Notes: generated by a model not told the origin, from the letters alone. Positions 25,004-25,664 are shown, counted from the stretch's first letter. The stretch is 64,000 bases of DNA from Escherichia coli (GCF_003334405.1 NZ_QOWM01000003.1); one strand, 5' to 3'. Program-made: numbers and translations.

Positions 25004-25360
25004 GCAGCTACTGACAAAATAGCCAGGACTCCACAAAACGCCTTTGTCGTAATACCTGACTGCAATATCTGGTCGATCTCGTCGCAGTAACCTACTCGAT
25101 ACGCCTTTGAGGCTGTTTACCAGACTGGATATCGCCAGTTTGGGAGGATAGTTAATTAACAAATGGACGTGATCTGGTCCGCCATCCATTTCAACCCGTT
25201 CAGCTTCAAAATCAGCACATACATTTGAAAAGTAAGTGCGTAGTTTTTCTGTCGCGTCATGGTCAAAAATCTGACGTCGGTATTTAGTAACGAAGACTAG
25301 GTGAACATGCTTCAGGAAAACACAATGCCTTCCGCGTCGGATATCGGTTTCTTTTTTCAT
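25004..25360 (-). pseudogene. tnpA: IS200/IS605-family TnpA (Y1 HUH transposase) fragment
   Basis: About 119 aa MKKETDIRRGRHCVFLKHVHLVFVTKYRRQ...DHVHLLINYPP... with HUH motif HVH; region that should carry the catalytic Tyr helix is not recognisable. Confidence 0.75.
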
Positions 25361-25382
25361 AGGCCAAAGTATGATTTGGCCC

Positions 25383-25664
25383 ATGAAACGACTACAGGCA
25401 TTCAAATTCCGGTTAAGACCAGGTGGTCAACAGGAGCGTGAAATGAGGCGCTTCGCAGGCGCATGTCGTTTCGTTTTCAATCGTGCTCTGGCGCTTCAGA
25501 ATGAGAATCATGAGGCCGGTAATAAATACATCCCTTACGGGAAAATGGCTTCCTGGTTGGTTGAGTGGAAAAATGCCACTGAAACGCAATGGCTTAAAGA
25601 TTCGCCCTCACAGCCATTGCAACAGTCACTGAAAGACCCTGAGCGGGCTTACAAAAACTTCTTC
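25383..25664 (+). pseudogene. tnpB: IS605-family TnpB (OrfB) N-terminal fragment
   Basis: 94 aa MKRLQAFKFRLRPGGQQEREMRRFAGACRFVFNRAL...ERAYKNFF matching the TnpB N-terminal domain; RuvC-like and zinc-finger regions absent. Confidence 0.75.

Follow-up and report, generated by a model that had tools for sequence, protein, structure and literature searches.

A doubly truncated IS609 remnant between ybcM and yedK in Escherichia coli

Features of the ybcM-yedK interval

The window analysed here is a stretch of 64,000 nucleotides of Escherichia coli DNA, and all positions are counted from its first letter. The gene order around the insertion sequence (IS) remnant is fliF, fliE, emrE, ybcL, ybcM, the remnant, a truncated yedK (yedK'), yedF, yedE, yedD and amyA. 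We derived this order from the open reading frames of the window together with the RefSeq annotation of genomes identical over a 1041-bp query spanning the remnant. The G+C content at about 22600-25000 is 34-44%, compared with about 52-55% on either side, which marks the emrE-ybcL-ybcM block as a horizontally acquired island between fliE and yedK. In K-12, these three genes are located in the DLP12 prophage. The features of the interval are listed below, with the basis of each in brackets; L002, L004 and L006 denote reference loci that are introduced in the following paragraphs.

24680-25000, no strand: spacer downstream of ybcM, ending at an older porin-deletion junction (collinear with L006 to 4778 and with L004 4988-5339)
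25001-25011, minus strand: 11-bp remnant of the 5' end of a porin gene, signal-peptide codons (L006 6001-6011 and L004 5329-5339 read GATGCAGCTAC and then porin)
25004-25375, minus strand (25375 to 25004): tnpA remnant, codons 1-124 of 143, Y1 HUH transposase (Pfam, NCBIfam, tblastn, alignment)
25376-25382, no strand: the 7 bp that separate the start codons of the divergent tnpA and tnpB (the same spacing is found in intact IS609; in L002 tnpA ends at 2872 and tnpB starts at 2880)
25383-25667, plus strand: tnpB (insQ) remnant, codons 1-95 of 402, N-terminal HTH region only (Pfam, NCBIfam, tblastn)
25665-25667, no strand: right deletion junction with 3-bp microhomology, CGG (junction alignments; BLAST segments overlap at 25653-25665)
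25668-26091, minus strand: yedK remnant, codons 1-141 of 222, SOS-response-associated peptidase (NCBIfam PRK09951, PGAP)

Nucleotide homology to intact IS609 spans 25004-25667 with zero indels and 95-96% identity over the 664 bp to each of three PGAP-annotated intact copies, which served as references: strain 272 (L002, at ytfA), K-12 DH1 (L003, tehB-ydcO) and CX04 (L004). Because the fragment is 96% identical to IS609, a name that we took from the RefSeq annotation of the intact copies, it is assigned to the IS200/IS605 family, within the IS605 group, and by descent it belongs to IS609. The full element is 1748 bp long, of which the window retains the central 38%. We are highly confident that 25004-25667 is the central 664 bp of an IS609 that is truncated on both sides and immobile. 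An earlier reading made from the sequence alone (the sequence-only reading) had placed a decayed IS200/IS605 element at 25004-25664; the element and its divergent strands hold up, and its true end lies three bases further, at 25667. Chance falls far short of explaining the match. IS609 is a catalogued element that is regularly reported in E. coli genome papers, and the feature described here is already known, annotated in RefSeq and mechanistically ordinary.

BLAST and tblastn found no second IS609-related DNA or protein match in the 64-kb window. Among 5,426 complete E. coli genomes, 4,996 are matched by the 25004-25664 query. Matches other than the fossil are about 95-96% identical and carry the annotations 'IS200/IS605-like element IS609 family transposase' and 'RNA-guided endonuclease InsQ/TnpB'. 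The strain 272 copy, which lies between yjfZ and ytfB (TnpA, WP_000604943.1; TnpB, WP_000826431.1), is 95.8% identical over the 664 bp with no indels and likewise has divergent tnpA and tnpB genes whose start codons are 7 bp apart. Compared with this copy, the window lacks both ends, TnpA residues 125-143 and TnpB residues 96-402, and carries 24 private substitutions. The K-12 copy (insQ/ydcM and a tnpA pseudogene, ydcL-ydcO) is 95.0% identical to the window fragment and is likewise non-mobile, but it occupies another locus, encodes an intact 402-aa InsQ/TnpB and keeps its right end. Transposition of IS609 was never seen in K-12 mutation-accumulation lines (PMC5009759). The elements that serve as mechanistic models, IS605, IS606 and IS608 of H. 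pylori and ISDra2 of D. radiodurans, are only distant protein-level relatives of IS609.

Retained and missing parts of the element

In intact members of the IS200/IS605 family, TnpA cuts out and inserts a single DNA strand with its HUH motif and tyrosine, and hairpins at both ends guide the reaction. TnpB is a RuvC nuclease directed by a guide RNA that comes from the tnpB 3' end together with the right end; by cutting the donor site that the element has left, it allows recombination to restore the element (PMC8612924; 10.1101/2023.03.14.532601).

The TnpA fragment of the window matches Pfam Y1_Tnp with an E-value of 4.4e-33 (model positions 2-106 of 121) and NCBIfam transpos_IS200 with an E-value of 3e-36 (124 bits against a cut-off of 55; profile 2-112 of 126). 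With CX04 TnpA as the tblastn query, residues 1-124 are covered at 92%. The HUH motif is H69-V70-H71, encoded at 25163-25171. At residue 124 the fragment ends ...GYFVSSC, and intact copies go on GGAPISxIRQYIEQQ; by alignment, tblastn and Pfam coverage, the catalytic-tyrosine helix RQYIEQQ is deleted and absent from the window TnpA. The equivalent catalytic residue of IS608 TnpA is Tyr127 in KQYIEN. These data bear out the sequence-only reading, which had described a TnpA of about 119 aa with an HVH motif and no catalytic-tyrosine helix: the fragment measures 119 aa from an internal Met and 124 codons in all.

The annotated start codon of tnpA, ATG, is mutated to ATC in the window. The minus-strand ORF that holds the TnpA piece extends over 24836-25405, and the tnpA frame reads on into non-IS DNA to 24836, yielding a chimeric ORF of 189 aa. 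In strain AVS0536 (L007 1333-1872, corresponding to window 24836-25375), the chimeric ORF, in which 55 codons of unrelated spacer follow tnpA codons 1-124, is accepted by PGAP as a genuine protein, 'IS200/IS605 family transposase' (WP_032143406.1). PGAP annotation of the tnpA remnant is inconsistent, being a protein in AVS0536 and a pseudogene in other genomes.

On the opposite strand, the TnpB piece is held in the plus-strand ORF 25371-25712, where the tnpB frame continues for 15 codons antisense to yedK, up to 25712. The fragment covers the whole of Pfam HTH_OrfB_IS605 (PF12323; E-value 4e-16, model 1-47 of 47). Its match to NCBIfam guided_TnpB (E-value 5e-21) covers only positions 1-89 of the 389-position profile and scores 75 bits, below the cut-off of 100. 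The full TnpB of CX04 comprises HTH_OrfB_IS605 at residues 1-48, the RuvC-bearing OrfB_IS605 domain at 162-277 and a Cas12f1-like TNB zinc finger at 304-370. Both the RuvC-bearing domain (PF01385) and the zinc finger lie beyond the break at residue 95 and are absent from the window fragment.

The region encoding the guide (omega/reRNA) RNA, L004 6666-7631, has no counterpart in the window by alignment. An Rfam search with an E-value threshold returned no guide-RNA family for the window region or for the intact CX04 locus; Rfam holds no model that detects the guide RNA even in the intact element, and the absence from the window is read from the alignment. The sequence-only reading had proposed a TnpB N-terminal fragment of 94 aa without the RuvC domain and guide-RNA region. 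The N-terminal identity (HTH region only) and both losses stand, the OrfB_IS605 domain being beyond residue 95 and the 3' end and right end being deleted, and the length is corrected to 95 codons. That reading had also named the Y1_Tnp and OrfB_IS605 profiles as those to which the fragments should be assigned. Y1_Tnp was matched. The TnpB piece matched HTH_OrfB_IS605 and not OrfB_IS605, which belongs to the deleted part, and the proposed assignment holds in spirit.

The ends of the element are also missing. A 12-nt motif, GTCCTTCAGGGC, is common to the left and right ends of intact copies and is absent from the window, as are the ends themselves with their subterminal imperfect palindromes; homology to IS609 stops at 25004 and 25667. 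We identified the ends of intact copies from this common motif and from family knowledge, not from folding energy, since folding the ends as single-stranded DNA predicted hairpins with z-scores of -0.4 to -1.8, which are not significant. The traits of the family are a Y1 HUH transposase together with TnpB, duplication-free insertion 3' of the target, and subterminal imperfect palindromes (PMC8612924; 10.1101/2023.03.14.532601). Traits of the Helicobacter and ISDra2 models were checked on intact IS609 copies, for which the target is TTAT, and no functional part survives in the window. Because the catalytic-tyrosine helix and both ends are deleted, the element cannot move, in agreement with its earlier description as fossil and immobile. 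With the tyrosine helix, both ends, the RuvC domain, the zinc finger and the RNA region gone, the remnant is not a functional IS609 element. It is inert DNA that can neither move nor cut, and it drifts as a pseudogene by vertical inheritance.

Allele series and deletion junctions

Two other alleles of the locus provide the comparison for the window. Strain S1-ESP-02-A (L006) carries fliE-emrE-ybcL-ybcM, an intact gene for a 360-aa ompC-like porin and an intact yedK of 222 aa, with no IS. CX04 (L004) carries a full IS609 (NZ_CP081713.1, 2073847-2075594) between a porin remnant and full-length yedK; its tnpA has an internal stop and its TnpB is intact at 402 aa. BLAST of L004 against L006 resolves this IS609 as a clean 1748-bp insertion at L004 5884-7631. 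The empty site in L006 reads GGCTTAT/CAAACAGG, and the filled site in L004 reads TTAT/CCGGTGCG...GATGTCAA/CAAACAGG, with no target duplication (slashes mark junctions). IS609 entered within the yedK stop codon, and at ytfA and tehB-ydcO, too, its left end directly follows TTAT. The comparison of L006 with L004 establishes duplication-free insertion 3' of TTAT for the ancestral full copy; the junctions of the window copy itself have been deleted. At L004 7628-7633, our reading of the junction sequence is that the right end (...GTCAA) gives YedK a new stop one codon (Cys) later.

Most of the porin gene is deleted in CX04 (L006 4779-6000), giving the junction ACGTTAA/GATGCAGCTAC, and the same junction occurs in the window between 25000 and 25001. 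The window shares with the CX04 allele the position and orientation of the element, the flanks and this upstream junction, and by BLAST it is collinear with both the CX04 allele and the L006 allele on either side of the element. The CX04 allele keeps both ends, the 402-aa TnpB and a yedK that is full-length but frameshifted, whereas the window has two extra deletions. Downstream of ybcM, CX04 has a 20-bp tandem duplication (CGTTGTTATTAAATCTAGTT twice; L004 5280-5318 versus window 24969-24988) that is present as one copy in the window and in L006.

The left deletion is 669 bp long and removed the porin 5' region and promoter, the left end of the IS and tnpA codons 125-143. At its junction, 25004-25011 (GCAGCTAC) are both an 8-bp microhomology and the first bases of the tnpA remnant. 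GCAGCTAC is found in the porin signal-peptide codons (L004 5332-5339) and in tnpA (L004 6001-6008), where IS609 reads GCAGCTACTGGCAAAATAGCC from L004 6001, and it is present as a single copy in the window. At the right junction, the IS609 sequence ...CTTCTTCCGG/AAGCGG is joined to the yedK sequence (reverse complement) ...TCCTTCGG/CTTCGTC. This deletion of about 1.2 kb removed tnpB codons 96-402, the right end with the guide-RNA region, and yedK codons 142-222.

From these alleles we infer an order of events. A low-G+C island, emrE-ybcL-ybcM-porin, would first have become established between fliE and yedK. A full 1748-bp IS609 would then have inserted 3' of TTAT in the yedK stop codon by single-strand 'peel-and-paste' transposition, without target duplication. 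The porin gene would next have been mostly deleted, and two transposase-independent deletions would have followed, one of 669 bp between the GCAGCTAC repeats and one of about 1.2 kb at the CGG microhomology. That the IS arrived after the island follows from the presence of the emrE-ybcL-ybcM-porin island without an IS in 456 genomes. The sequence-only reading had taken the element to mark the event that reshaped the locus. This is right in that the edges of the fossil are two deletion junctions, one of which truncates yedK; the part that fails is the role of the IS, which neither brought nor reshaped the island.

Because microhomology occurs at both junctions and neither lies at an IS end or at TTAT, the two deletions are best read as probable replication slippage or illegitimate recombination, not the action of transposase or TnpB. 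The alternative is that the deletions were self-inflicted, with breaks induced by TnpB or TnpA at or near the element being repaired with loss, so that the IS actively reshaped the locus. TnpB does make double-strand breaks adjacent to its target motif (PMC8612924; 10.1101/2023.03.14.532601), and each deletion has one endpoint inside the IS. Those endpoints, however, fall in tnpA codon 124 and tnpB codon 95 and not at an IS end, at TTAT or in the right-end flank, where TnpA and TnpB would act. Both junctions also carry direct-repeat microhomology (8 bp and 3 bp) of the kind typical of slippage or illegitimate recombination, and the earlier porin deletion arose at the same locus without any IS endpoint. 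We therefore hold self-inflicted deletion to be most unlikely. Read as slippage or illegitimate recombination, the locus would offer a base-resolved example of the death of an IS200/IS605 element through microhomology deletions and not through its transposase.

Common descent of the window and CX04 insertions is suggested by their position and orientation, by the shared porin-deletion junction and by only two shared derived sites, at 25274 and 25284. A different history can be proposed, in which the fragment arrived already truncated, on an imported segment or with the island, and the full IS609 of the CX04 type is an independent insertion. The window fragment is no closer to the CX04 copy (4.5% divergence) than to copies at other loci, and with a short, specific target such as TTAT, which recurs at three sites, a repeat hit at one site is conceivable. 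Against this history, the two elements have the same orientation and the same position between the porin remnant and yedK, and the exact porin-deletion junction is common to both. In addition, the window has 11 bp of porin sequence fused directly to tnpA at an 8-bp repeat, and both parental sequences in the CX04 allele contain that repeat; both flanks are collinear with CX04 and L006. Arrival in a truncated form is, on this evidence, very unlikely. It is possible that the whole finished allele was imported by recombination between lineages, which would leave the identity of the feature unchanged. Taken as a whole, the locus is almost certainly explained by a dead IS609 copy, of the IS200/IS605 family with divergent tnpA and tnpB, in the ybcM/yedK interval of the E. 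coli chromosome.

Distribution, sequence decay and the truncated yedK

To count the alleles, we searched the set of 5,426 complete E. coli genomes with 100-base probes spanning each junction. Of these genomes, 1111 have the fossil's right junction and 1109 its left junction; the difference suggests that a few have just one of them and would be intermediates. About 20% of sequenced E. coli carry the annotated remnant, SK1144 and FY26 being examples of carrier strains. An intact IS609 right end adjoining yedK, as in CX04, is present in 668 genomes (CX04 and 667 others), and the empty site, in which the porin upstream region adjoins yedK, is present in 456. K-12-type genomes match only positions 33-100 of the empty-site probe, starting about 16 bp after the yedK stop codon; the fliE-yedK variable region therefore begins at that point. 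Most carriers of the fossil are at least 99% identical, with hundreds of complete genomes 100% identical over the region. Among the carriers listed, each genome has one to three IS609-related places. The remnant and its two junctions are convenient lineage markers.

The window fragment differs by 4.2-5% from the intact copies, which differ by 1.2-1.8% among themselves. Of the 24 private substitutions in 664 bp, 13 are nonsynonymous and 10 synonymous, a ratio that is not clearly neutral; the sites are too few to settle the matter, and some of the changes pre-date the truncation. The private changes include the ATG to ATC change of tnpA, Y110D in TnpA and L86P in TnpB. AVS0536 (L007) is a diverged carrier of the same two junctions and has 11 of the 24 private changes in common with the window; its yedK remnant has an additional stop codon. 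Of 26 differences between the window and AVS0536, 12 cluster within 133 bp (25289-25421), where AVS0536 has the states of intact IS609 and the window has the private ones. This cluster looks like a patch of ectopic gene conversion between the fossil and another IS609 copy, in either direction.

Neither remnant frame is interrupted in the window or in the diverged allele of AVS0536, and the open frames together with the N:S ratio may leave some room for residual expression or function. On this basis one could propose that the remnant is kept for a function: the HTH-only TnpB or the HUH-only TnpA might be a small regulator that binds DNA or RNA, or might inhibit intact IS609 or InsQ copies at other loci. 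The allele is fixed in about 1,110 genomes, and relatives of TnpB have been exapted as RNA-guided regulators (PMC10705468). The exapted relatives, however, keep the full fold and the guide RNA, and the window has lost three quarters of TnpB together with the RNA region. Moreover, tnpA no longer has its start codon, and conserved positions carry substitutions. A scan of 24600-26250 for consensus promoters and terminators found no sigma-70-like promoter, which argues weakly against expression. Since most carriers are so nearly identical, the open frames carry little weight. PGAP, for its part, treats both IS pieces as pseudogenes in most genomes; in fossil-type genomes the pseudogenes are labelled 'IS200/IS605 family transposase, incomplete', 'helix-turn-helix domain-containing protein, missing C-terminus' and 'SOS response-associated peptidase family protein, missing C-terminus'.

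The tnpA remnant also tolerates insertion: an 868-bp IS5-family element interrupts it, with a duplication of TTAG (25284-25287), in many genomes whose sequence here is 100% identical to the window apart from this element, which the window itself lacks. The tnpA remnant is therefore dispensable, and retention of either piece for a function is highly improbable. A narrower form of the proposal is that the 95-aa HTH-only TnpB piece is still made and damps in trans the intact IS609 or InsQ that most carriers have, for instance through an affinity for the IS ends or the guide RNA. We consider this extremely improbable; if true, the piece would be a naturally occurring truncated-TnpB regulator. The remnant is better regarded as an inert pseudogene. 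An example of the IS5-family element is found in strain 104 (L001 4609-5476), where PGAP records a programmed frameshift and an internal stop. The TTAG at its insertion site was created by two fossil-specific substitutions, at 25284 and 25286.

The right deletion also determines the state of yedK. YedK is the bacterial SRAP protein, which crosslinks to abasic sites. The remnant in the window matches NCBIfam PRK09951 over profile positions 1-141 of 222 and scores 322 bits, below the cut-off of 349, and PGAP labels it 'incomplete; missing C-terminus' in identical genomes. YedK is thus not full-length here, its C-terminal 81 codons having been lost in the same deletion that removed the 3' part of tnpB. 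The active site of YedK comprises Cys2, Glu105 and His160, of which His160 would be lost in the remnant. Judged from the sequence, about 20% of sequenced E. coli (about 1,110 of the 5,426 complete genomes) are probably natural yedK-defective strains. Such yedK-truncated strains are possible natural material for YedK/HMCES research.

A repeat search of 24600-26250 gave nothing beyond short families of two copies, for which chance can account. One of them, a perfect inverted repeat of 13 nt at 25561-25573 and 25769-25781 (TTGAGTGGAAAAA and TTTTTCCACTCAA), has its arms in the tnpB and yedK remnants; it is most likely a coincidence, both arms encoding Glu-Trp-Lys. Between yedK and yedF, at 26167-26193, there is a perfect palindrome with a 13-bp stem, ATTCCCGCTGTGG C CCACAGCGGGAAT, which is conserved in other alleles and is probably a bidirectional terminator or a similar hairpin. 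Rfam matches at gathering score elsewhere in the window correspond to ordinary E. coli features, namely rseX (1436-1525, minus strand), DsrA (9862-9948, plus strand) and C0465 (61696-61773, minus strand), and a cluster of tRNA-Gly(GCC), tRNA-Cys(GCA) and tRNA-Leu(TAA) was recorded by the same score at 43173-43475 on the plus strand.
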